From Paludibacteraceae bacterium (GTDB lineage Bacteria; Bacteroidota; Bacteroidia; Bacteroidales; Paludibacteraceae), in assembly GCA_016285885.1 (NCBI GenBank), contig JAEERP010000003.1:127510-191509 (forward strand): 64,000 bases of DNA. The letters run 5' to 3'. Below, in pieces: positions 7,558-51,256 of the stretch. Each line of letters opens with the position of its first letter. Positions within the stretch are counted from its first letter, which is position 1. Below the pieces are notes generated by a model. That model saw only the letters and a program-made list of their open reading frames with translations, was not told the origin of the DNA and did not search any database. Position numbers and translations under genes: made by a program.

Positions 7558-8438
7558 TGGATGTCAAGAAATTTTATAAGGAACAATTGGCCGAGTGGCC
7601 GGAATTTAGGCAAAGAGTAGAACAGCTAAAGGAAGTGACGTTGCGTGAGTTCAAGATAAACGGATTCACCATACTAGCCCAATTCAACCCAGCCCGCGCC
7701 ATATCATCAGGCGCCAAGCTGGACAAAGACTCCATCGCAAACAGGAAATGCTTTCTGTGCGGGGAGAACCGCCCGACGGTACAACGGGGGCTTAAGATGA
7801 ACGAGCGTTTCACCCTGCTCGTGAACCCCTTCCCCATCCTTCAAGAGCACTTCACGATCGCCTGCGACGAGCATTGCCCGCAGGAGATAAAGAATAACTT
7901 GTCCGACATGCTGGATTTCGCCCAACAGATGCCCGACCACATCCTCTTCTACAACGGGCCACGTTGCGGTGCCTCCGCACCCGACCACCTGCATTTCCAA
8001 GCGGTTGCGAAAGGTCAGTTGCCTTTGGAGAAGGAGTGGAGAAAGGCGGAGAAGCGGGTGCTGTCCGAATGGAACGGACATCGGTTGGAACAGTTGGTGG
8101 ACTACGGCCGGCGGTGCCTCCATGCGGAATCGGAACGGAAAGATGCGTTGGCATCGCTCTTCAACCAGACCTACACGCAATACATGATGATGGAGGGAGG
8201 CAATGAGGAGCCTCGCCTGAACCTATTCGCCATGTACGAAGAGGGACGCTGGCATCTCTTCATCTTTCCGCGCAAGACACATCGCCCCACACAGTATTAC
8301 GCGGAAGGCGATACGTACCGTATGATCAGCCCGGGGGCAATCGACATGGCCGGTGTCCTCGTCCTGCCACGCAAGGAGGACTTCGATGCGTTGAACCTCA
8401 GTGAATTAACAGACGTCTTCAACCAAGTATCCCTCTAA
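7557..8438 (+). CDS. DUF4922-like HIT-superfamily protein (GDP-hexose phosphorylase / nucleotidyltransferase-like)
   Basis: 293 aa. Histidine-triad-like APDHLHFQAV. TAATG overlap with the GT2 stop. Family assigned from memory of the DUF4922 architecture. Confidence 0.6.
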   Translation: MDVKKFYKEQLAEWPEFRQRVEQLKEVTLREFKINGFTILAQFNPARAISSGAKLDKDSIANRKCFLCGENRPTVQRGLKMNERFTLLVNPFPILQEHFTIACDEHCPQEIKNNLSDMLDFAQQMPDHILFYNGPRCGASAPDHLHFQAVAKGQLPLEKEWRKAEKRVLSEWNGHRLEQLVDYGRRCLHAESERKDALASLFNQTYTQYMMMEGGNEEPRLNLFAMYEEGRWHLFIFPRKTHRPTQYYAEGDTYRMISPGAIDMAGVLVLPRKEDFDALNLSELTDVFNQVSL

Positions 8439-8443
8439 CCCCT

Positions 8444-8917
8444 ATGTTGACGATGAAACACATCATACTTTCCATTCTGTCGTGTTGCCTCTTCATGGGC
8501 GTCTATGCGCAGGGGCCAGCCACTCCGGCGGAGGATATCAACATCAGGGAGGTGAGCCGTGGCGGACTGCTACGGGCGAAGGAAGACTCTCCCTCGATCA
8601 TCTTCATGCGTGAGGGAAGCACCACCCGCTATTTCCTCGAGATGATCACAACGTATAAGCTGGACAACCTCATGTTGTTCTACCTTGGCAAATCGAAAGA
8701 GCAAGTCAGGGAGTGTCTGGAGTATTTCCAAAAGATCTTGGAAGAGAAGGTACAGGTCACCGTGAGGGATGACGTCAAGAGCGTCTATTCCATCTCCTAT
8801 CAGCAGGAGGATGGCCGAAACCTGCGCTTCTCGACGAAAGGATTCGTGGGGGATGGCCACCTCAGCAAAGCCAACCTCAGGAAGTTCATCTCAGACCTGG
8901 AGAAATTCACGGAGTAG
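8444..8917 (+). CDS. Small secreted hypothetical protein
   Basis: 157 aa. Signal peptide MKHIILSILSCCLFMGVYAQG. Lies 5 nt after the upstream stop, so it is probably the last gene of the operon. Confidence 0.7.
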   Translation: MLTMKHIILSILSCCLFMGVYAQGPATPAEDINIREVSRGGLLRAKEDSPSIIFMREGSTTRYFLEMITTYKLDNLMLFYLGKSKEQVRECLEYFQKILEEKVQVTVRDDVKSVYSISYQQEDGRNLRFSTKGFVGDGHLSKANLRKFISDLEKFTE

Positions 8918-8965
8918 ATTTCGAGACGCCAATCCGTTTCGAGACATCCTTGAATTGAAGGGAAC

Positions 8966-9005
8966 AAAAAAGCTCAATGTGGGACGCACACTGAGCTTTT
9001 TCTTT
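8966..9005 (+). terminator. Rho-independent terminator candidate
   Basis: AAAAAGCTCA...TGAGCTTTTTCTTTT stem-loop immediately downstream of 8444..8917. Confidence 0.5.
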
Positions 9006-9080
9006 TGGTAGTCGAGCCGGGAATCGAACCCGGATCTAAGGTTTAGGAAACCCGTATTCTATCCATTGAACTACTCAACC
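9006..9080 (-). tRNA. tRNA-Arg (anticodon CCT), CCA encoded
   Basis: Minus-strand fold. Acceptor GGTTGAG/CTCGACT, anticodon loop TTCCTAA, T-arm CCGGG-TTCGATT-CCCGG, discriminator A followed by CCA. Confidence 0.85.
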
Positions 9081-9289
9081 AAACCCATGATATCCTTTTC
9101 TGGAATCATTGCGCGAATTTAAGAGAAAAATGCTCCGCTCCCAACTCTTTGGGGAATAAAATTTACGTTTTTCCATGATTTCGCCTAAGAATATATTTTT
9201 TGTGGATGGGGCCTATTTAAGGTTACTGGTGAGGCTGGGGTCGCAAACCGTGTTGTTGGAATGGGGGGCTTGGGTTCATGGGTGATATC

Positions 9290-9327
9290 AAAAAAGGCAG
9301 GTTGAAGGGGAATCCTTCAGCCTGCCT
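9290..9327 (-). terminator. Rho-independent terminator of the 9351..12017 gene
   Basis: On the minus strand, GGCAGGCTGAAGG-ATTCC-CCTTCAACCTGCC is followed by TTTTTT. Confidence 0.7.
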
Positions 9328-9350
9328 TGGGTTAGTTGTGGAAGAATAAT

Positions 9351-12017
9351 TTATTTCAATAGTATCTTTTCCACTATCGTATTTTCATTTGTTGTAATCT
9401 TAACAAAGTAGAGATTCTTCTCCCAATTAGAGAGGTCAAATACGGAGACATCTTCGTTCACTTCCTTAACCATCAGGACTATGCCATTGGCGTCCATCAA
9501 CGACAGGCTCTTTATGGTTTGTCCATCGCCGCAAGCGACATAGAGCAGTCCGGAAGTCGGATTCGGATAGACGGCGATATCGTTGGTCACTGAGATTTCA
9601 TCGTCCACATCTGTAGGCATAGATGGCTTTGGAGCGGCATGTGGTTTTTTTTCTGTAATGTTATTTATGGTTTTTATGTATTCTCTTAATTTTTGTTTTA
9701 CAGCATTATACAGTTGCCTCCCTTTCTTCTTATTCTCATTTTCGTTCTTTCCTTTTGCTTTTGTGTCGAACATAGCGATATCTGCACATAATTCTATTCC
9801 AATAGGTTTTAGGGACTCATGTGTCAAGCGATCAATTTTTACGGAATCAAGTTCAATAGGTTTAGGTTCTGAATTAAATTTCAGGTATTCAATCATGCCA
9901 AAATTACCTTGAATTTTGTTGGCATCGTTATTTGTATCAGTATACATGAAATCATTCATTCTAAATACTACAACGGTGTTGACAAACCCCATGTCTTTAG
10001 CCTGTTCTAAACAATAGTATAAATAATCGGCATTCGTTTGCTGATTATCTTGTGTGTATCTTTTCCAAGATTTATAGGTGCTATCGGCCTCGTCTGTAAA
10101 TCCGAATTCCGTAAACCATACAGGAATTGTTTTGCCTTCGGATGTTCTGTGTCCATTGTCAATAGTGATTCTATAAATCTCCTCCACATGGCTTCCCCAA
10201 TCATCATAATTCTTACATGCACACGAGGTGTCGGGTTGTACATGATGAAATAAATAGGGATGGATATTTAGAATTTGGAAATAGTTGTTAGGATCGGCAG
10301 TTCTTTCTCTGCTACCGACTCCCGTTGGTTGTCCGATAGCAATTTTATCGTACATTCCTTTAAGGAAATCAAACGATTCTCCTGTTGTCGTGAATGCAGG
10401 CGATAGCAATTTTTTGGGATTCTCACTGAGTCTAGCGCTTTCTTTAAGAGCTTTAGAGATGTAAAAGCACAAGTCGGTTTGTATCTTATATAACAATTCG
10501 TTAGGATACTTAGCTGTCTTTGCTTCATTTATCTGGCTACGTAATAAAGATTGAGCCGTACTTTTGTTAATATCAGCAGAATATTTCACAATTGTATCTG
10601 CCTTGGAGTTGAAATCTGCTGTGCCTGGTTTCAAAGACCTCAGAACCTGCCATTTGTCACCTAGATTAACTCCAAAATCCGGTTCGTTGGATGCCTCAAA
10701 GAATTCGACATCAGGGAATGAGTCCGCTAATATTTTGAATACTTTTTCTTGGTTTTTTAGGAACCTTAAATAAGCATCGGATTCAGTGTTTGGGTTTGGA
10801 GAACACGAATAGGCATACCTTATCTGTTTTTTACCTTTCCCATTTTCCCCCTCCAAATCATTGGCACTATACCAATTAAGGCCTTCCCCATCCCAGCAGA
10901 GATAATTGGGGTAGTTTCTGTCCACAATATAACCGTCTGATACAAAACATATCCGATCGATGCCTTTGTCCTTCAATTTCGTCACAAAATCTTTTAAACT
11001 TTTCCACCCCTTTGTTTTATGGTAAACCTCACCATTTTGTATAACAAACAGGTTGTTAAAATTCATCCATACTCTAAAAGTGCTAACACCAAAAGCGGCA
11101 GCCATGTCACTAACATAATCATTGTCGGCATATTCCAACGTTGAGTGCTGGGTTGATACCTGATAACTTGGTTCACCTAAGCCGATATAGAAATCCTCTT
11201 CTGTATAGGAAACATTTCTCTTTATAGGTCTTATCGGGAGGCCTTTATAGCGGGTTGTCGAATAGCTACTAATAACGGTTTTAGTCAACTTTATACAAAC
11301 AGCTTTTGAAGGGTTGCTCTTATCAGGGTCAGAAGTCCAATAATAACCACTGTTGTTTTCCTCTAGACATGATGTGAACTCTTTCATTCCTGTCAACGGG
11401 AAAGAAATTGAATTGCCATTTATTATGGATGTAAAAGTAATAATATTATTAGATCTAGATCTAGATATGCTGCGGGTCGTGTATTTGAACAATTCCTGGA
11501 AATCCTTTTGGGATGGGATAACACAGTTTTTGCCCCATGCTTGGGTCGCCGCATCATAAACGGCAGGCAAAGAGCGTCCGCCATGTGTGTAAGATCCTAC
11601 AGTTACTGGGACTACGCAAAATAGTGGGTCCTTAAGTGTGCCACAATCCACAGAAGAGAATCCACTAAATATGACATTATTGTTAGTTTTATTAGGATCT
11701 AACAGATATATATGTTTTTGACTTTCTGGAAGTGCTTTCTTTTCATCAAAGTATGTTTCCCACGAGAAATAGGCGTCAGCCCACTTTGTTACCTTTTTAT
11801 TTTTATTTGCTTTGATTTCTCCCCATGCATAATAGGATGTGGAAGCTGACCCTAAGTTTTCTTTGGCCCACAGATTTCCACTTGGCAACCCTAAATCCAC
11901 GAACTCAATTGCATGCACACTAAATGCCACCATGCTGCTTAACGCAAGCATGATTGAAAAAAAATAACGATACATAAATTTACTTGTCGATTTAATTAAC
12001 TTTATAAATATATTCAC
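9351..12017 (-). CDS. Secreted multidomain protein: FISUMP/DUF1566-like lectin domain + clan GH-A glycoside hydrolase-like domain + T9SS type-A C-terminal sorting domain
   Basis: 888 aa. N-terminal LGLPSGNLWAKENLG...YYWTSD...GLPIRPIK. Catalytic-type motifs FFEASNEPDFG (acid/base) and VWFTEFGF (nucleophile). C-terminus VYPNPTSGLLYV...NLYFVKITT...KILLK. Visibly AT-rich compared with its neighbours. The start could instead be the downstream Met at 11975. Confidence 0.75.
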   Translation of the reverse strand: MNIFIKLIKSTSKFMYRYFFSIMLALSSMVAFSVHAIEFVDLGLPSGNLWAKENLGSASTSYYAWGEIKANKNKKVTKWADAYFSWETYFDEKKALPESQKHIYLLDPNKTNNNVIFSGFSSVDCGTLKDPLFCVVPVTVGSYTHGGRSLPAVYDAATQAWGKNCVIPSQKDFQELFKYTTRSISRSRSNNIITFTSIINGNSISFPLTGMKEFTSCLEENNSGYYWTSDPDKSNPSKAVCIKLTKTVISSYSTTRYKGLPIRPIKRNVSYTEEDFYIGLGEPSYQVSTQHSTLEYADNDYVSDMAAAFGVSTFRVWMNFNNLFVIQNGEVYHKTKGWKSLKDFVTKLKDKGIDRICFVSDGYIVDRNYPNYLCWDGEGLNWYSANDLEGENGKGKKQIRYAYSCSPNPNTESDAYLRFLKNQEKVFKILADSFPDVEFFEASNEPDFGVNLGDKWQVLRSLKPGTADFNSKADTIVKYSADINKSTAQSLLRSQINEAKTAKYPNELLYKIQTDLCFYISKALKESARLSENPKKLLSPAFTTTGESFDFLKGMYDKIAIGQPTGVGSRERTADPNNYFQILNIHPYLFHHVQPDTSCACKNYDDWGSHVEEIYRITIDNGHRTSEGKTIPVWFTEFGFTDEADSTYKSWKRYTQDNQQTNADYLYYCLEQAKDMGFVNTVVVFRMNDFMYTDTNNDANKIQGNFGMIEYLKFNSEPKPIELDSVKIDRLTHESLKPIGIELCADIAMFDTKAKGKNENENKKKGRQLYNAVKQKLREYIKTINNITEKKPHAAPKPSMPTDVDDEISVTNDIAVYPNPTSGLLYVACGDGQTIKSLSLMDANGIVLMVKEVNEDVSVFDLSNWEKNLYFVKITTNENTIVEKILLK

Positions 12018-40470: not shown

Positions 40471-41766
40471 CTATTTGAAAGATAACACTTTCCACTTGTA
40501 AAATGGAACGACATTGATTACCAATCCATTTTTCTCGATTACTTGCTCATCATTCCACGCAACTACGGTGAGCCGATCGCACTTTAGTTCACCAGCACAT
40601 TCCACCAGGGCTGAGAGTTCCCTTTTTTGCACGGATGGAGACGAGAAGTCATAACAAACCTGCACCAATTCTTTTATCCTATTTTCAGACCTCAGGACAA
40701 AATCTATCTCTTTGTCGTTTCGCGAACGATAGTAAAACAGGTTTTGCTCCACGTTCAGCCCTGATTGAATGAGGCGCATGAAGACCGCATTCTCCAATAG
40801 CCTGCCCAGATTCTGCGACAACTGGAATGCCTTCGCACAAATCAGACCGTTATCGACGATGTAAACTTTACGGGCGGACTTCTGCATTAATTGGAGCTTG
40901 TTATTGTATTGTGGCAAGAAAAAGAACAAATAAGACTGCAACAAATAGCCACAAAACTTCTGTGTGGTGGACTTGCTCGACAACCCCAGCTCCTGCGTGA
41001 TGTTCGTGTAGGAGACAGGATTGGTGAAATTCGCCAGCAGATAGGAGGCAACGTTTGATAAATCATTGACACGCCGTATCTTAAAACGATTCACGATGTC
41101 TTTCAAAAGCACGGAGTCATACACACTGCTCAAATAGGTCTTGATGATGGACGGGGTGAGGATGGTTTCGGCGAATCCTCCGTTATGGAGATAGTCATCG
41201 ACAACACTCAGCAGTTTTCCCTTCTGCTCCGGTGTTTCAGTCTCCGGACTAACATTTCGGTACGACAAATACTCAGGGAGAGAGAATGGCAAAATCTCAA
41301 TATTCAGGAAACGACCCGTGAGCGATGTCGCCATTTCCGAGGATAGCAACTTAGAATTAGAACCCGTTACGACAAGGTTAATTCCTCTACGGTACAATTT
41401 GTTCACCCAGAGCTCCCACCCCGACAGGTTCTGTATCTCATCCAAAAGCAGATATTGGAAATTTGGGTACACCTCCTGCAAGGATTGCATCACCTCATCT
41501 TCGTTGAAACGATGCAACAACTGAGCGTCATCAAAATTCAGGTAAGCGAAGTTGACGTTCTGCAGGATAAGCAAAGCGCAAACCGATTTCCCTGCCCGAC
41601 GAGGACCGGTGATCAGCTTGATAAGAGGGGACTGCAGATAATCCGACACGGGCAGATTCAACGAGCGAGGCTGATACGTTTTCCCCAAAAGCGCATCCCG
41701 TTCATATTTTTGCTGAAGTATTGTTTCTCTCATCTTTTTGTCCATTATTTCACTTATACTGGACAA
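40471..41766 (-). CDS. AAA-type ATPase with a DUF4143-like C-terminal domain
   Basis: 431 aa. Walker A GPRRAGKS, Walker B YLLLDEIQ. The alternative start at 41745 (MDKKMRE) is equally plausible. Confidence 0.85.
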   Translation of the reverse strand: MSSISEIMDKKMRETILQQKYERDALLGKTYQPRSLNLPVSDYLQSPLIKLITGPRRAGKSVCALLILQNVNFAYLNFDDAQLLHRFNEDEVMQSLQEVYPNFQYLLLDEIQNLSGWELWVNKLYRRGINLVVTGSNSKLLSSEMATSLTGRFLNIEILPFSLPEYLSYRNVSPETETPEQKGKLLSVVDDYLHNGGFAETILTPSIIKTYLSSVYDSVLLKDIVNRFKIRRVNDLSNVASYLLANFTNPVSYTNITQELGLSSKSTTQKFCGYLLQSYLFFFLPQYNNKLQLMQKSARKVYIVDNGLICAKAFQLSQNLGRLLENAVFMRLIQSGLNVEQNLFYYRSRNDKEIDFVLRSENRIKELVQVCYDFSSPSVQKRELSALVECAGELKCDRLTVVAWNDEQVIEKNGLVINVVPFYKWKVLSFK

Positions 41767-41826: not shown

Positions 41827-42420
41827 CTATTTTTTTATGATATATTGTTCAATCAGCCCCCTAAACTGCTCCTTGTTTTCCTTAGCATACCGTACACTAA
41901 GACCCGTAATGGAATCTTCGGAAGCATAGAAGGCATCATCACATGGGTTTAGTTCCTCGATGACACTATCCTCTTCCACATTTTTCGCATAAATCGCCAA
42001 TGCCTTTCTGCATATCTTCGCGATATCATAGGCTTTGATCGCCTCGGCTGACGAGACAAGAATATCATTGTAATGACCGTCTGTATTGTGGAAGAACTGG
42101 TCGAACCCACCGTTGTTCACCTCCATATCCAGTTTATCCATCACAAGAAAAACTTTCTCATACTCATTGAGTTTGGAGAACTCCTCCCCATAATTGCTTT
42201 TCTCACAAAGCGCATTGTAGATGTGATATTGGATGATTCTATCTTCCTGCTCCCATATATCGCCCTGAAAAGCATAAGCGGAGTCGAGGGAAGAACGCAT
42301 GTTATCTATCGGGGATTCTGTGATATCGTTGGATGCGGCTGAAGCCTTCTTTTGGAAAAACATGTACAGAATTCCTGCTACGACAACAGTCGCCACTATC
42401 ATAATTAATTCGGTTCTCAT
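41827..42420 (-). CDS. DUF4375 / DMP19-like protein with an N-terminal transmembrane helix
   Basis: 197 aa. TM segment IMIVATVVVAGILYMFF. EVNNGGFDQFFHN motif, recalled as typical of DMP19-family C-terminal domains. Confidence 0.55.
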   Translation of the reverse strand: MRTELIMIVATVVVAGILYMFFQKKASAASNDITESPIDNMRSSLDSAYAFQGDIWEQEDRIIQYHIYNALCEKSNYGEEFSKLNEYEKVFLVMDKLDMEVNNGGFDQFFHNTDGHYNDILVSSAEAIKAYDIAKICRKALAIYAKNVEEDSVIEELNPCDDAFYASEDSITGLSVRYAKENKEQFRGLIEQYIIKK

Positions 42421-42514
42421 GTTGGATTAGTTTTGGGGCTGTTAATGATTCTTTTTCAGTTTGTTGGATACATCGGATTGTGATAATTTTATTATTGGGG
42501 GATTACATTGAATG

Positions 42515-43588
42515 CTATTCTTCTGTATCTATATTATTTTCAAGCCGTTGCTTGGCCGATTCCAATGATTTCTGAATCTGACGTATCAGAACCTCTCTTG
42601 GCGGCAGTTCGGTCATATACTGGGCGACCTTGATGCCCGACTTGTCGAGTTGCAGCAATTCGATCTGTTCTTCGCTACCTTCGGTGCATAGCAACAAGCC
42701 CAACGGTGTTTCCTCACCAGGTTCCATCTCGTTCTGCTCCAGCCAACGCAGATAAAGCTCCATCTGACCTTTGTATTGAGCCTTGAATCTGCCAAGTTTC
42801 AAGTCGATGGCAATGAGTCGGTGCAGACGACGGTGATAGAACAGCAAGTCGAGGTAAAAGTCTTCTCCGTCGATAATCATCCGTTTCTGACGAGCCACAA
42901 AGCTGAAGCCATTTCCTAGTTCTATGATAAACTGCTCCAAATGAGCCACTAGACTGTCTTCCAGACTCTTCTCACTATACATTCCTTTCAGACCTGTGAA
43001 CTCAAGAAAGTAGGGACTCTTAAATACCAAGTCGGGCGAAAGCACATTTCCCTCACGCAATTGCGAGAGTTCCTGTCTGACGAGCGCATCGGGTTTGCCG
43101 CTGATAGCGGTGCGTTCATAGAGCATGCTGTCGATTTCCTTGCGAAGTTGACGAATAGACCATTTTTCTGAAGCAGCAAGTGTCAAATAAAACTCCCGCT
43201 GAAGGTCATCATTCAAAGATATAACTGCCACAAAATGAGACCATGACAATTGTCGTGACAGTGTCACGACAATTTGAGAATCAGGAATCATCTGTGCAAA
43301 TTGCATCATTCTTCTGATGTTTTTCTCATCAAACCCTTTTGCTCCATATTCCTCTTGCAATTGTGTCGACACTGTTGACACAATCTGCTTCCCGTACTCA
43401 GCACGTTGGTTACTCAGCACATCACGGTTGATGCGCTCGCCAATGTGCCAGTACATCATGGTTAGCTCACTGTTGACGGTGGAGGCCACACGCCCGCGCG
43501 CTTGCTCTATAATCTGCCGCAAGTCTTCCACCAAAGATTTGGACACCAGTGGTGCGACAATTCTATTATTCAAGTCGGTTGTACTCAT
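42515..43588 (-). CDS. DUF1016 / YhcG-family PD-(D/E)XK nuclease
   Basis: 357 aa. LSWSHFVAV, and FYLDLLFYHRRLHRLIAIDLKLGRF (D...D-x-K core). Confidence 0.8.
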   Translation of the reverse strand: MSTTDLNNRIVAPLVSKSLVEDLRQIIEQARGRVASTVNSELTMMYWHIGERINRDVLSNQRAEYGKQIVSTVSTQLQEEYGAKGFDEKNIRRMMQFAQMIPDSQIVVTLSRQLSWSHFVAVISLNDDLQREFYLTLAASEKWSIRQLRKEIDSMLYERTAISGKPDALVRQELSQLREGNVLSPDLVFKSPYFLEFTGLKGMYSEKSLEDSLVAHLEQFIIELGNGFSFVARQKRMIIDGEDFYLDLLFYHRRLHRLIAIDLKLGRFKAQYKGQMELYLRWLEQNEMEPGEETPLGLLLCTEGSEEQIELLQLDKSGIKVAQYMTELPPREVLIRQIQKSLESAKQRLENNIDTEE

Positions 43589-45429
43589 TTTGTGGCAATT
43601 ATTAATCTGTATTTTTCGATTTCTTTATTCAACAATTCAATCATTTCTTTTTTATGCTCCTCTACCATAGTTTTGTCCCAAACATTTCCATTCTTTTTCA
43701 TTTTATCACACATTAAGCTAAGCTTTGGGCTCTGTTTTATCGCTTCTGGATAACTAGCATCTTTAGACTGTGGATCTAAATTGGAGAACTTAGAATTCGT
43801 TGAAACTGTTATTAATGCAAGATTTCCAAAACTATTTAAATGAGCATCATCCCAGCATTCTTTCTCAATCGGATGCTGAGGATAAAAATGCTCTATAGAG
43901 GTTCTAAATTGAAATTGGAAATTAGAGATTTTCGATATAGAATCCCTATCCAAAATATAATCCAAATAGGTAAATACAATTCTATCTATTCCAAATCCAC
44001 TAGCTTCTGTATAGTTTGCTTCTTCTATTTTACCACATGCATATTTTTCCAAGAGTTTTGTTAAATCAGCATTTTGATCTTTGTTTAGTTCTGTAAAAAC
44101 TATCGAAATCCAATGCATTGTTTTGGGCGAAGTATATGTAATTCTTAAAGCGGACTGCAAACTTCTTAAGGTTTCTGTTTTTTCATCAGTATCCTTTTCC
44201 CCATTGCTATATGTTAATTTATAATCTGGTTTGTCTTGATTTCTGTTTTGATCATAATACTTTTGCAACTTTTGAAGAGACCATCTCCCTTCTTCTTTAT
44301 ACTCTTTAGCAAATTCTCGTTTTATGATATATTTGTCAAACAAGTATCTGCACTTCAGAAGATAAAAGATAAAACGTACTGCATTATCTCCATTTTTCCA
44401 ACGTATTTTTAATGTATCAATAAACTTTTTATCGTCGAGAGAAGCATCATTTTCGTTTGAGTCCTCTTGCATTGATTCGTTGACAATTAAAAGAAAATTC
44501 GGAAAAGAAATTATTGATTCAAATCGCTCATTTTCGCCATCATTTTCACTTTTTTTATTTGATGATTTGATTGGGTCCTCTATCTTTTCTAACAATGAAA
44601 ACCTTTTTTCTTTTTCTTCGTCTTTAATCGATATCTTCGATTTTATTTCGTCAATATTTGAGCATTCAAATGAATCCCAATTTTCGCCAAAAAGGATTTT
44701 CCTACTTATTGTGTCAAAATTCATTTGTACGTAGCTATCCATCTGAGAACACTTATCCCAAATCAATGCTGAAATAGCCTTATATTCTGGTTTATCCTTA
44801 TCAATAACACTTAAAATCTTACCTTTTGCAATTTCATGAATCTCAAGTTGTTCTCCACGAGTATTCATAATCTCAAAATAGTGATTTAAATCTATTTGTT
44901 TAGGAACTTGAGTTCTGATTATCAATATATTATGAAGCTTTGATTTGAACTGTTTTTCATATTCTATGTCCTTTGAATTAGCAACAGCAAAAAAATTTTT
45001 AATAATTTCAAATCCATTAACAATTTCCTTTGAGTAATAAAATTCTTTATCAATTTGTTTTTTTTCGTATATGTCTTTTAAGGCGATGTTCGATTTTTCT
45101 CTGGCTTCAAATCGTAGCGATTTCACTGATATTGTTTCATCTTTTAAAAAAGATAGAAGAAGAAAAAGTGTTGTTAATCTTTGTTGTCCATCTATCACAG
45201 AAAATGTATTAGGAGCGGTTTCATCTACAATTAAACTACCAAGGTAATATCTGCCGTTGGAATCATAAATGTCATTGAGCAATAACTCAATTTCGTCTTT
45301 TTCCCAAGCATAACTCCTCTGATATATGGGTACTATATATTCACTACCAACAAATATATTCTTTAAATTGAATTCTTCTGGTTGTTTTACTGCATGCATA
45401 TTTAATTCCCTCCAAAAATATAATCCCAT
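43585..45429 (-). CDS. GmrSD-like fusion: DUF262 (ParB/NTPase-like) N-terminus + DUF1524 His-Me-finger nuclease C-terminus
   Basis: 614 aa. IVPIYQRSYAW, IDGQQRLTTLFLL, EIMNTRGEQL. C-terminal TSIEHFYPQH...NSFGNLALI...SKFSN. Very AT-rich. Confidence 0.8.
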   Translation of the reverse strand: MGLYFWRELNMHAVKQPEEFNLKNIFVGSEYIVPIYQRSYAWEKDEIELLLNDIYDSNGRYYLGSLIVDETAPNTFSVIDGQQRLTTLFLLLSFLKDETISVKSLRFEAREKSNIALKDIYEKKQIDKEFYYSKEIVNGFEIIKNFFAVANSKDIEYEKQFKSKLHNILIIRTQVPKQIDLNHYFEIMNTRGEQLEIHEIAKGKILSVIDKDKPEYKAISALIWDKCSQMDSYVQMNFDTISRKILFGENWDSFECSNIDEIKSKISIKDEEKEKRFSLLEKIEDPIKSSNKKSENDGENERFESIISFPNFLLIVNESMQEDSNENDASLDDKKFIDTLKIRWKNGDNAVRFIFYLLKCRYLFDKYIIKREFAKEYKEEGRWSLQKLQKYYDQNRNQDKPDYKLTYSNGEKDTDEKTETLRSLQSALRITYTSPKTMHWISIVFTELNKDQNADLTKLLEKYACGKIEEANYTEASGFGIDRIVFTYLDYILDRDSISKISNFQFQFRTSIEHFYPQHPIEKECWDDAHLNSFGNLALITVSTNSKFSNLDPQSKDASYPEAIKQSPKLSLMCDKMKKNGNVWDKTMVEEHKKEMIELLNKEIEKYRLIIATK

Positions 45430-46736
45430 ATAACACCATACTTTTCTGACTTATATGAATTTAACTTTTCTCGTTCAACTTTTTCTAATACGATGCTATC
45501 CATTTCATATGGGTTTTGCATTTCAGATATCATATTAAAAAGATTCAGTCCTTTATTCACTCGACAATTCTCATTTCCAAGGGCATATCTATTCACTGTT
45601 TGTGGATATACAGAATGCATAACGACCCTTAAAGAATATGCCCATTGATAAAGAAATCGTAATCTACTATCAGTCAACTCACTAGCATTGAATTTGTCAA
45701 TAAAAAAGATTATGATATTTATGAATAAATTTCTAATGTAGGAATTGCCCGAACCACATGAAGAAATCAAGTGGGAGTCAAATTTTGTTTCAATAATATT
45801 TATTATATATTTATAAAGATTGAAATAATAAAGTGTGTATTGAAAAAATCTTTTCCCTGCTATTAAAGGTTGTGTTAACTGAAATTGACGGACCATCTCT
45901 CCACTTGTCAATTCATACATTCCATCTGAATTAAAATGTTCAATATATAAATTTGCCGCTTTGTGATAAATAGAGTAATTATAATTGTAATTTTTCTTTA
46001 TGCCCTTAAAAGTTTTTATCTTCTTTGAAGAATAATAAAGTCCTTCTCTGTTCTTATACCATTGAACTAACGGGAATAAATTATTTTCAAAAAAAAGAGA
46101 TAGATCCTTTGGGGGTTCATTCTCCCATTCATTTATTATTTTTATCTTTTCAGTTTCAGAGCTATCTGACATTTCTCGAAGATGGTATGATTTTAATAAA
46201 TCTTGAGGAGCTAGAGCTTTCCCTCTGTGATTTTGAGAATCAAAAAATTGAAAAGCCTCTTGTTCTGTACTTGTTATAATTTTCACAAATGTACAACTAT
46301 CTAATGCATATTTTATAAAACCATTCAACTCATTGGCTATTATCTCACAATGTCTCTTGAGAACCTCGTAATTATCGATTATTGATTTAGATGAAAGATC
46401 ATCAAATGTGTTTTTTTTATCCAACAACTTTGAAAGCCTTAAATACTCATCATTCTTTGAAATATGATAAAAACAATAGGTAAGAATGGTTAGTGTTGTT
46501 ATACGTTGTTGTCCATCTACTATTTCAAATTCATTTCCATTGTCATAAAGGACAACAGAACCTATTCTATATTCTGGAATGTGATTTTTATATGCAAAAT
46601 AAATGTCATTGAAAAGTGTAGACGCACTTTCTGTGGACCATCTATATGGACGTTGGTAACTTGGTATTGAAATATTTATATTCAACACATCTTTTAATGA
46701 TACTATTTTCAACCTTTCGCTTTCCATTACTTTCAA
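45402..46736 (-). CDS. Stand-alone DUF262 domain protein
   Basis: 444 aa. IPSYQRPYRW, VDGQQRITTLTIL, FFDSQNHRGKALAPQDLLK. No nuclease tail seen. Overlaps the downstream gene by 28 nt. Confidence 0.8.
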   Translation of the reverse strand: MKVMESERLKIVSLKDVLNINISIPSYQRPYRWSTESASTLFNDIYFAYKNHIPEYRIGSVVLYDNGNEFEIVDGQQRITTLTILTYCFYHISKNDEYLRLSKLLDKKNTFDDLSSKSIIDNYEVLKRHCEIIANELNGFIKYALDSCTFVKIITSTEQEAFQFFDSQNHRGKALAPQDLLKSYHLREMSDSSETEKIKIINEWENEPPKDLSLFFENNLFPLVQWYKNREGLYYSSKKIKTFKGIKKNYNYNYSIYHKAANLYIEHFNSDGMYELTSGEMVRQFQLTQPLIAGKRFFQYTLYYFNLYKYIINIIETKFDSHLISSCGSGNSYIRNLFINIIIFFIDKFNASELTDSRLRFLYQWAYSLRVVMHSVYPQTVNRYALGNENCRVNKGLNLFNMISEMQNPYEMDSIVLEKVEREKLNSYKSEKYGVIWDYIFGGN

Positions 46737-46939
46737 TAATTAATTCCACAGAAATAAATTATTTGGACCAAGTAGTATCCTAAACGACTAAACAATTTTA
46801 TCACGTAGTATCTTTATCTTTTATTACTGCTTTTTTATTCCAAAAAGGAGCAAGAAGCCTCAGCTCCTTGCTCCCCTATCATATCCGAGCCAGAAAAACT
46901 CTTAACTCTTAATTCAAAATTCTTAATTCATAATTATCC

Positions 46940-49534: not shown

Positions 49535-50434
49535 ATGAAAATACCGTTTTGTAAACCCTACACAAGTCCGCCTGACTTGGTTGAACTCCTACAATCACGT
49601 GGTTTGACAATTGAAGATGCCGCAAAAGCTCAGCATTATCTTCAACACATTGGATATTATCGTCTATCCGCCTACATGTATCCCTTTTTACGAATCCCCA
49701 AGAAACAACATCGATATAAGCCAGAAGCAACATTTAGAAAAGTGATGATGCTATACCGCTTTGACAAGAAGCTTCGTCTTTTTATATTCAATGAGATCGA
49801 AAAGGTTGAAGTTGCCATACGTTGTGCCATAGTTAATGTGGGGTGTGAAATTACTGGAGATCCTTTTTGGATGACTGACAGCCAAAATTTCACGAATCAA
49901 ACAAAGTACCTTCAAACCATGCGATTGGTTAATGATGAGCTTCGACGTTCACGAGAAGACTTCATCAATCACTTTAAGCAAAACTACACGAACGATTATC
50001 CTCCTGCATGGATGCTTTCAGAAATCCTTCCTTTTGGTGTCATGACCAATCTCTATGACAATGTCAGGAATATGCGCATAAAGAAGAAGGTGGCTCAGAA
50101 ATTCGGACTTCAAGTCGCTCCATTCGAATCCTGGATGACAATCATAACCCTTACACGTAACTCATGCTGCCATCATGCCCGTGTGTGGAATAAGCAAAAT
50201 ACGATTCGTCCGATGTTACCTAATCGAATAAACCATCCGTGGATAAACTTGTCAACAGACCTGCTACGTGTCTATTTTGATTTATGTATCATCAAATATT
50301 TTCTTAACATCATATCACCGATGAACGACATGACAAAGAAATTAAAATCCTTGCTGGCTGAATATCCTGATGTTGACACATGTGCAATGGGATTCCCTAT
50401 GGGGTGGCAGACTGAACCACTATGGGGATATTGA
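49535..50434 (+). CDS. Abi_2 (AbiD/AbiF-like) abortive-infection family protein
   Basis: 299 aa. LQHIGYYRLSAYMYPF, EILPFGVMTNLY, RNSCCHHARVWN. Confidence 0.8.
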   Translation: MKIPFCKPYTSPPDLVELLQSRGLTIEDAAKAQHYLQHIGYYRLSAYMYPFLRIPKKQHRYKPEATFRKVMMLYRFDKKLRLFIFNEIEKVEVAIRCAIVNVGCEITGDPFWMTDSQNFTNQTKYLQTMRLVNDELRRSREDFINHFKQNYTNDYPPAWMLSEILPFGVMTNLYDNVRNMRIKKKVAQKFGLQVAPFESWMTIITLTRNSCCHHARVWNKQNTIRPMLPNRINHPWINLSTDLLRVYFDLCIIKYFLNIISPMNDMTKKLKSLLAEYPDVDTCAMGFPMGWQTEPLWGY

Positions 50435-50623
50435 GAAGATGTGCTTTTTTACCTGTTATATTAATAGAAATGCAATATGCTCTTCTATGTGTCAAATGGC
50501 ATTTTCTAGTGATATATTTTATCATATAGAAAATATTCAACATCTTTGTATGCAATATGACATGAATTACAAAGTCTGGAATATTGCTTTATAACAAAAA
50601 CGGTTGAACAAAATAAAAGCGAT

Positions 50624-51256
50624 ATGGAATACGGAATAGTTTATCTTCTAACCAACCCAGTAATGCCAGGACTTGTTAAAATTGGTATGACTGCGCAAGA
50701 AGATATTGATAAAAGGATGAAAGAACTCTACACAACAGGCGTGCCTGTGCCTTTTGAGTGTCAATTTGCTTGCCGAGTGAAAAAATCAGACTGCGTAAAA
50801 ATTGAGAAGGCCCTTCACACAGCTTTTGAACCACAAAGGATCAATGCTAATCGGGAGTTCTTTCGAATCCAAGTTAACCAAGCGAAAGCTATTCTTGAAC
50901 TATTCCACCACACAGACGTGACAGAAGAAGTAACTGATGAAATACAAAACGATTTAACTGAAAATGACAAAGCCGCATCAATTAAAGCTCAATCCAAACG
51001 TCCTGCATTAAACTTTTTTGAGATGGGCTTGCAAAAAGGTGACGTCCTTAGATGGAAAGAGAACCCTTCAATATCTGTAACCATTGTGTCAGAGCGTAAA
51101 ATCGAATATGAAGGAGAAGAAACTTCCATCAGTTCACTTTCAGCAAAACTGAAAGGATATAACACAAAACATATCGCTCCTGGCGCATATTGGTTATTCA
51201 ATGACAAATTGCTTGGCGATATATACGATGAAACATATCCTTTTGAAGCAGAATAA
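50624..51256 (+). CDS. T5orf172 / GIY-YIG-like nuclease family protein with a C-terminal extension
   Basis: 210 aa. GIVYLLTNPVMPGLVKIGMT...RMKELYTTGVPVPFE...REFF. Confidence 0.75.
   Translation: MEYGIVYLLTNPVMPGLVKIGMTAQEDIDKRMKELYTTGVPVPFECQFACRVKKSDCVKIEKALHTAFEPQRINANREFFRIQVNQAKAILELFHHTDVTEEVTDEIQNDLTENDKAASIKAQSKRPALNFFEMGLQKGDVLRWKENPSISVTIVSERKIEYEGEETSISSLSAKLKGYNTKHIAPGAYWLFNDKLLGDIYDETYPFEAE

Follow-up and report, generated by a model that had tools for sequence, protein, structure and literature searches.

TgvAB is a two-protein type IV restriction system encoded on VPI-2 of Vibrio cholerae (PMC11411939; bioRxiv 10.1101/2024.04.05.588314). Both proteins are needed, and they suffice for defence without further genes; the DGQQR motifs of both proteins and the His-Me finger residues H571 and N602 of TgvB are essential (PMC11411939). 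Its targets are T-even phages whose hydroxymethylcytosine is glycosylated, and T2 mutants that escaped restriction were found to have lost glucosylation (PMC11411939). It was named for its embedding in a type I restriction-modification (R-M) operon, which its authors do not require; they counted >1,300 homologous operons, some of them in Bacteroidales, and stand-alone homologues were 17 times commoner (PMC11411939). Here we analyze a stretch of 64,000 nucleotides (nt) from a Paludibacteraceae bacterium (contig JAEERP010000003.1; referred to here as the window), in which a first-pass annotation had proposed a novel three-gene defence operon. We find that these genes are very probably a TgvAB-family pair (genes 1 and 2) and an independent, resident yhcG gene (gene 3), which became adjacent by insertion in a strain-variable hotspot.

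Other GmrSD-like enzymes provide further points of comparison. Eco94GmrSD, BrxU (7p9m), SspE (6jiv), and DndI (9jfl) act as single polypeptides. GrwAB, from the V. cholerae WASA lineage (PMC12137116), is a two-protein type IV system with DUF262 in both proteins and DUF1524 in one; the fusion protein is GrwA, while GrwB has an extended C terminus with several unknown domains, unlike TgvA (review, PMC12409362).

Gene calls and base composition

The three genes come from an uncultured rumen Bacteroidales bacterium, in which they lie in a hotspot with a GH94 gene on one side and an alpha-L-arabinofuranosidase gene on the other. The window matches NCBI record JAEEGK010000020.1 at 100% identity. The longest open reading frames (ORFs) and the gene calls used here are as follows.

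45402..46736, minus strand: gene 1, longest ORF, 444 amino acids (aa)
45402..46727, minus strand: tgvA-like gene, 441 aa (Pfam; match to V. cholerae TgvA and to listed TgvA hits)
43585..45429, minus strand: gene 2, longest ORF, 614 aa
43585..45399, minus strand: tgvB-like gene, 604 aa, encoding DUF262, a helical linker, and a DUF1524 His-Me finger (start from homologue alignment)
42515..43588, minus strand: gene 3, ORF of 357 aa; yhcG, encoding a DUF1016_N and YhcG_C PD-(D/E)XK nuclease (Pfam; PADLOC PDC-S02)

The first-pass annotation had placed the three co-directional ORFs correctly, and every motif that it quoted from the three proteins was found. It had also described a jump in composition at the junction with the DUF1016 gene, and this jump is present: the guanine-plus-cytosine (GC) fraction is 0.292 in gene 1 and 0.301 in gene 2 versus 0.466 in gene 3, with values of 0.51 to 0.53 in the flanking glycoside hydrolase genes. 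The modular assembly that it read from the jump is supported, as the jump reflects an inserted cassette (see below).

Two gene starts were revised. The start of gene 1 is most likely the ATG at 46727 rather than the TTG at 46736, because the database copy of the protein has 441 aa. Homologues of the gene 2 protein start with MNQTIKQPEEF... (603 aa), which aligns with the window ATG at 45399 (MHAVKQPEEF..., 604 aa), located 2 nt past the TAA of gene 1. The 28-nt overlap reported between the two DUF262 genes thus depends on taking the longest ORF and is probably an artefact of that choice, given that the homologous start leaves a 2-nt gap. The tgvA and tgvB genes overlap by 4 nt in the closest relatives, and such overlap is frequent among the relatives checked.

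Genes 1 and 2 belong to the TgvAB family

Membership was judged by homology to the founder and MacSyFinder-hit sequences in Table S5 of PMC11411939, which gives the first ~400 residues of each (e.g., the first 399 aa of V. cholerae TgvA, AAF94916.1). Gene 1 had been described as a stand-alone DUF262 protein, which it is not. Its N-terminal part is a GmrSD_N/DUF262 (ParB-like NTPase) domain (1.9e-31), and a full-length DUF7834 domain (4.7e-57) occupies the C-terminal half; the Pfam scan detected neither DUF1524/GmrSD_C nor any other nuclease domain in the protein. The same combination of GmrSD_N and DUF7834 (3.4e-38) makes up V. cholerae TgvA (AAF94916.1) and recurs in four further listed TgvA hits (Pasteurella, Cytophaga, Bifidobacterium, and Syntrophomonas). 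Because the founder and these listed hits carry it, DUF7834 can be read as the TgvA C-terminal domain, which neither PADLOC-DB 2.0.0 (2023) nor NCBIfam says; our literature search returned no papers on DUF7834.

The gene 2 protein contains GmrSD_N (1.2e-29) and GmrSD_C/DUF1524 (3.5e-12), and inspection revealed the motifs YQRSYAW, DGQQR, FEIMNTRGEQL, IEHFYPQH, FGNLALI, and STNSKFSN. The motifs of both proteins are intact and lie at the following positions.

46638..46658, minus strand: TgvA YQRPYRW ("QR") motif of DUF262, invariant in the TgvA family alignment
46503..46517, minus strand: TgvA DGQQR nucleoside triphosphate (NTP)-binding motif, conserved in the TgvA family alignment
46212..46247, minus strand: TgvA FFDSQNHRGKAL (FxxxN) motif, including FFDSQN, found in the family alignment too
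45178..45192, minus strand: TgvB DGQQR motif, invariant in the TgvB family alignment
43780..43896, minus strand: TgvB His-Me finger, with IEHFYPQH (catalytic His), FGNLALI (Asn), and STNSKFSN (Asn), invariant in the TgvB alignment

Over the DUF262 domain, gene 1 shared 31% identity with V. cholerae TgvA (BLASTP E value, 4e-25); gene 2 shared 24% identity with V. cholerae TgvB over ~400 residues, extending into the helical linker (4e-26). Identities were considerably higher to two other pairs among the authors' TgvAB hits, namely, those of Treponema succinifaciens (hit #23; AEB13727.1/AEB13728.1; 74% for TgvA and 70% for TgvB) and Syntrophomonas wolfei (48% and 49%). The window pair is therefore like V. 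cholerae TgvAB in having a DUF262-DUF7834 TgvA encoded upstream of a DUF262-linker-DUF1524 TgvB by tightly coupled genes, in the QR, DGQQR, and FxxxN motifs of both proteins, and in the H...N...N His-Me finger of TgvB. It differs from the founder in that its TgvB has a chimeric 7-residue C-terminal tail, described below.

The two genes form a unit well beyond the window. The gene 1 family comprises >5,000 database clusters, with GmrSD_N plus DUF7834 in all of the best 120, and a TgvA scan of species-representative genomes gave at least 576 loci. We retrieved 79 TgvA loci, of which 71 were informative (i.e., at least 2 kb of sequence downstream); in 68 of these 71, the next gene after the TgvA-like one encodes a TgvB-like protein. 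The A-then-B order was found in every contig checked of the closest relatives (72 to 73% identity) and of the ~58% identical pairs from Campylobacter and Butyrivibrio. The cassette is horizontally mobile: the family crosses phyla at 50 to 60% identity, and its neighbours elsewhere (integrases, ToxN, SIR2, RelE/HTH, and an SRA-HNH gene) are typical of mobile defence cargo. The subclade of the window pair, recognizable by FQFFDSQN (TgvA) and NHYFEIMNTRGEQLE (TgvB), spans Bacteroidota, Spirochaetota, Bacillota, Fibrobacterota, and Campylobacterota and is far more widespread than the tested Vibrio type, whose marks differ (FFETQNTGG and LFATMNTAGIQLE).

On the basis of these results, genes 1 and 2 are most probably a GmrSD-like, modification-dependent (type IV) anti-phage system. 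The proposal of a type IV-like anti-phage operon thus holds for the pair and fails for the trio. Likewise, the layout had been thought to correspond to no named system, and genes 1 and 2 match the published TgvAB. That family was named and tested in 2024; the window pair adds a member to it, and the claim of a novel three-gene system is not supported.

Structure and profile searches gave limited additional information. An AlphaFold model of gene 1 (mean predicted local distance difference test [pLDDT] score, 77.9) has a helical C-terminal half, and Foldseek with this model retrieved only GmrSD-family enzymes (best matches, DndI, SspE, and BrxU) via the shared N-terminal part (template modeling [TM] score, ~0.3). 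This search with a predicted structure confirms the family and is uninformative on DUF7834. A PDB sequence search gave no match with gene 1 and weak matches (E value of 1e-6 or worse) with gene 2 to DndI and SspE, in the N-terminal domain only; no TgvAB structure appeared in it. Profile comparison of the TgvA and TgvB families (hhalign) aligned only DUF262, and DUF7834 could not be related to the linker/nuclease region of TgvB.

Several observations on the family are recorded here in addition. Some TgvA homologues (P0024, P0026, P0031, and P0033) have 628 to 659 aa versus the usual ~440 aa, and residue 9 of the window TgvA falls at match column 196 of the family profile, which fits an N-terminal extension of ~190 residues in the long homologues. 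Some TgvA homologues also give a weak Pfam match to DndB. The DGQQRxTT-coding segments of tgvA and tgvB (46471-46519 and 45146-45194, respectively) have 73% DNA identity over 49 nt and are the sole long direct repeat inside the cassette. Among the relatives, L094 has a damaged tgvB (8305-10117) split into ORFs of 440 and 175 aa, the DUF262 and DUF1524 parts of TgvB are ~2.5 kb apart in L053 (9289-12858), L047 has only the N-terminal DUF262 part of TgvB, and L038 has no TgvB-like match.

yhcG is a separate gene that was resident at the site

Gene 3 encodes DUF1016_N (5.8e-47) and YhcG_C (9e-45) and matches the PADLOC single-gene candidate PDC-S02 over its full length (5.3e-126); candidate E, D, and D-x-K residues were seen by inspection (ELGNGF, LDLLF, and IDLK). 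YhcG homologues number thousands, and the best 120 are 74 to 100% identical and come from Bacteroidales where named. Compared with this family, gene 3 is an ordinary full-length member, distinguished solely by its accidental overlap with tgvB. Our literature searches on DUF1016 and PDC-S02 returned only survey papers and no functional test of defence.

If the trio were a true three-component system, with YhcG recruited as a second nuclease effector or accessory and translationally coupled to TgvB, the three genes should recur together. From the TgvA side, a YhcG homologue was present within the retrieved flanks in 1 of the 79 loci, so that the trio was missing from the other 78. From the YhcG side, we examined 80 metagenome loci with a 77 to 92% identical YhcG, 40 of which were informative (at least 2.5 kb upstream); neither TgvA nor TgvB was found beside YhcG in any of these 40. 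The sole case among the 79 TgvA loci, L018 (6931-7899) from a Fibrobacteraceae metagenome-assembled genome, encodes a 36%-identical YhcG on the strand of tgvA and ~100 nt ahead of it.

A comparison of strains at the same chromosomal site provided the strongest evidence for the independence of yhcG. The genes on either side are 87 to 98% identical at the nucleotide level in sister contigs from rumen samples. Between the GH94 and arabinofuranosidase genes, the window and these contigs show four configurations.

Window and L096-L099: tgvA - tgvB - yhcG - DMP19 - AAA_14/DUF4143
L100-L103: yhcG - DMP19 - Fic - AAA_14/DUF4143; tgvAB absent
L104-L107: Fic-domain gene - 90-aa gene - yhcG - DMP19 - 178-aa gene; tgvAB absent
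L001 and L002: tgvAB (99 to 100% identical) - yhcG cut to 97 aa - DMP19 - AAA_14/DUF4143

In L001 and L002, 82 bp (L001 13390-13472) replace 875 bp of the window (42462-43338), leaving yhcG as a 97-aa DUF1016_N fragment. The tgvAB pair and yhcG are each found without the other in near-isogenic backgrounds and are therefore independent units. Given the rarity of the trio in the surveys and the sister strains that hold each unit without the other, we conclude that gene 3 is separate from the TgvAB unit and, along with a DMP19-like gene, was resident at the site before the cassette. The idea of the trio as a conserved unit did not survive these comparisons, which separate the units in both directions. 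Two outcomes that the first-pass annotation had itself set against its proposal were found, i.e., the trio is not conserved elsewhere and the genes match a named system.

A DMP19-like gene (PF14300, DNA-mimic protein family; 2.4e-20; window 41827-42420, minus strand) follows yhcG in every configuration listed above. We considered YhcG-DMP19 as a conserved pair and dropped it, as just 1 of 66 other YhcG genes is followed by one for a DMP19-like protein; common descent of the locus, and not a functional module, seems to explain the pairing. More speculatively, YhcG and its DMP19-like neighbour may be a nuclease and its inhibitor.

Cassette insertion and the tgvB-yhcG junction

The boundaries of the tgvAB cassette were located by comparison with strains that do not carry it.

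43618..46840, minus strand: tgvAB cassette, 3223 bp, 29.6% GC (blastn of the window versus L100 and L102)
46841..46939, minus strand: terminator-like hairpin of GH94 (GGGGAGCAAGGAGCTGAGGCTTCTTGCTCCTTTTT), left edge of the hotspot; homology to tgvAB-less strains ends at 46841
43585..43617, minus strand: chimeric 3' end of tgvB, in which the yhcG leader supplies the final ~7 codons (RLIIATK) plus the TGA (comparison with tgvAB-less strains)

The cassette stands where L100 has 31 bp, and homology to the tgvAB-less strains resumes at 43617, with 29 nt to go before the yhcG ATG; this right edge falls within the present tgvB ORF. Among TgvB homologues, the closest end in ...KEI(E/D)KYKKA, whereas the window TgvB ends in ...KEIEKYRLIIATK. 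Ahead of yhcG, the tgvAB-less strains read ...ATTAATAAT(A/C)...ATGAAATGAG(T/A)ACAA, and L100 already has ...ATTAATAATAGCTATGAAATGAGTACAA before the gene. Because strains without tgvAB carry this leader sequence, the TGA that overlaps the yhcG ATG predates tgvB. The chimeric tail and the pre-existing TGA make the ATGA overlap a by-product of insertion, not evidence of an evolved operon. The overlap that had been noted between the stop of the fusion gene and the DUF1016 start is thus real, while the coupling drawn from it falls away, given that the overlap was made from a leader older than the cassette.

We propose that a 3.2-kb, 29.6%-GC tgvAB cassette entered the space that separates the GH94 terminator from yhcG, at a point 29 nt short of the yhcG ATG. 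The tgvB frame thereby lost its native terminal codons and now runs into the yhcG leader as far as the older TGA, which yields the ATGA overlap and probable co-transcription without functional integration. Neither a target-site duplication nor an att-like repeat was found among direct and inverted repeats at the cassette ends. In the window strain, yhcG is now probably transcribed by read-through, since the resident leader has been reduced to 29 nt and no terminator-like site was found between tgvB and yhcG in the window. The locus shows at base resolution how the arrival of a defence cassette at a hotspot produced a chimeric ORF end and an operon-like stop/start overlap, and it cautions that gene overlaps need not mark functional units.

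Weighing the alternatives

Several points weigh against a TgvAB-family pair next to an unrelated yhcG. The tgvB-yhcG overlap, with no terminator, occurs in the window and at least four contigs (L096-L099), so that these genes are probably co-transcribed, and cross-talk of TgvAB and YhcG is conceivable from the sequence alone. The unrelated locus L018 also has a yhcG adjoining tgvA, directly upstream. As for the pair itself, the window copy, unlike the founder, lies outside any type I R-M operon, with no hsd genes among its neighbours (GH94, yhcG, DMP19, and AAA_14/DUF4143). The founder proteins are only 31% and 24% identical to those of the window, so the target modification, and even modification-dependence, are extrapolated from V. 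cholerae. We found no experimental test of the window subclade, and its target modification would be worth addressing by experiment.

The three-component system introduced above would also account for the co-directional genes, their ATGA stop/start overlap without an intervening terminator-like site, the identical arrangement in several independent metagenome contigs (L096-L099), and the neighbouring genes of L018. We nevertheless consider it very unlikely, given the near absence of the trio from both surveys and the same-site sisters that have yhcG alone or tgvAB with yhcG deleted. In addition, the overlap was built from an older yhcG leader with a nonhomologous tgvB tail of 7 residues, GC differs by 17 points between tgvAB and yhcG, and V. 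cholerae TgvAB alone suffices for defence (PMC11411939). We give similarly little credence to a variant of this idea, in which the accidental fusion of the tgvB 3' end to the yhcG leader made a new functional link in this lineage and YhcG, expressed solely through read-through and translational coupling from tgvAB, would serve as a second, modification-independent nuclease. If so, YhcG would widen TgvAB defence or act as its backup, and the locus would show a multi-effector system in the early course of its assembly in a defence hotspot.

Genes 1 and 2 might alternatively be another GmrSD-like pair, similar to GrwAB, or two independent single-chain enzymes of the GmrSD/BrxU/SspE type. GrwAB is likewise a two-protein DUF262 system, gene 2 shares the DUF262-linker-DUF1524 layout of Eco94GmrSD, BrxU, SspE, and DndI, and the best Foldseek matches of the gene 1 model were to the last three enzymes. 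PADLOC-DB 2.0.0 matched genes 1 and 2 only partially and N-terminally, to its HEC-06, Orf5, and SspE models, and no NCBIfam model matched either gene; because that PADLOC release predates TgvAB, it cannot name the pair. We regard this possibility as very improbable. Gene 1 has no DUF1524 nuclease and so cannot be a GmrSD on its own, and V. cholerae TgvAB, unlike the single-polypeptide enzymes, needs its DUF262-only partner. The window partner of the fusion is a 441-aa DUF262-DUF7834 protein encoded upstream of it, as in TgvA and unlike the multidomain C terminus of GrwB, and the strict A-then-B adjacency and the 70 to 74% identity to listed TgvAB hits place the pair in the TgvAB family.

That the pair is not anti-phage at all is barely credible, whether it is taken as a remnant in decay or, say, as a regulator of the DndB/ParB kind accompanied by an unrelated nuclease: the DUF262/ParB-like fold does occur in regulators such as DndB, to which some TgvA homologues match weakly in Pfam, and tgvB is split or interrupted in some relatives (L094 and L053), but both window ORFs are intact with all catalytic motifs conserved, the very large family moves between phyla at 50 to 60% identity beside integrases, ToxN, SIR2, RelE, and an SRA-HNH gene, and the homologous V. 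cholerae system is experimentally anti-phage (PMC11411939).

Proposed mechanism of the TgvAB-like pair

By analogy with V. cholerae TgvAB, BrxU, and SspE, the ParB-like DUF262 NTPase domains of both proteins may cooperate as a sensor or switch for modified phage DNA. Once licensed, the His-Me finger of TgvB would cut the modified DNA, and neither TgvA nor TgvB would be active alone. Because TgvA is without a nuclease domain, we propose it as the sensor or regulatory partner, which would be obligatory as in the founder system.

Neighbouring genes and variability of the site

The DMP19-like gene of the yhcG-deleted contigs (L001 and L002) has 81% protein identity to that of the window, while the other island genes have 98 to 100%. 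This diverged DMP19 and the 82-bp replacement point to a local recombination or deletion hot spot. A third defence-candidate gene of the 6.7-kb low-GC island between the two glycoside hydrolase genes encodes an AAA_14 and DUF4143 ATPase (40471-41766, minus strand) that matches PADLOC candidate PDC-S01 (5.3e-102). A second variable spot lies on the other side of GH94 (49535-51256, plus strand), occupied in the window by genes for Abi_2 (2.4e-55) and T5orf172/MUG113. At this spot, the sister contigs carry a single NERD and Zn-ribbon gene (L001), AAA_15/AAA_21 and RloB (L100), or three DnaJ-domain genes (L104).

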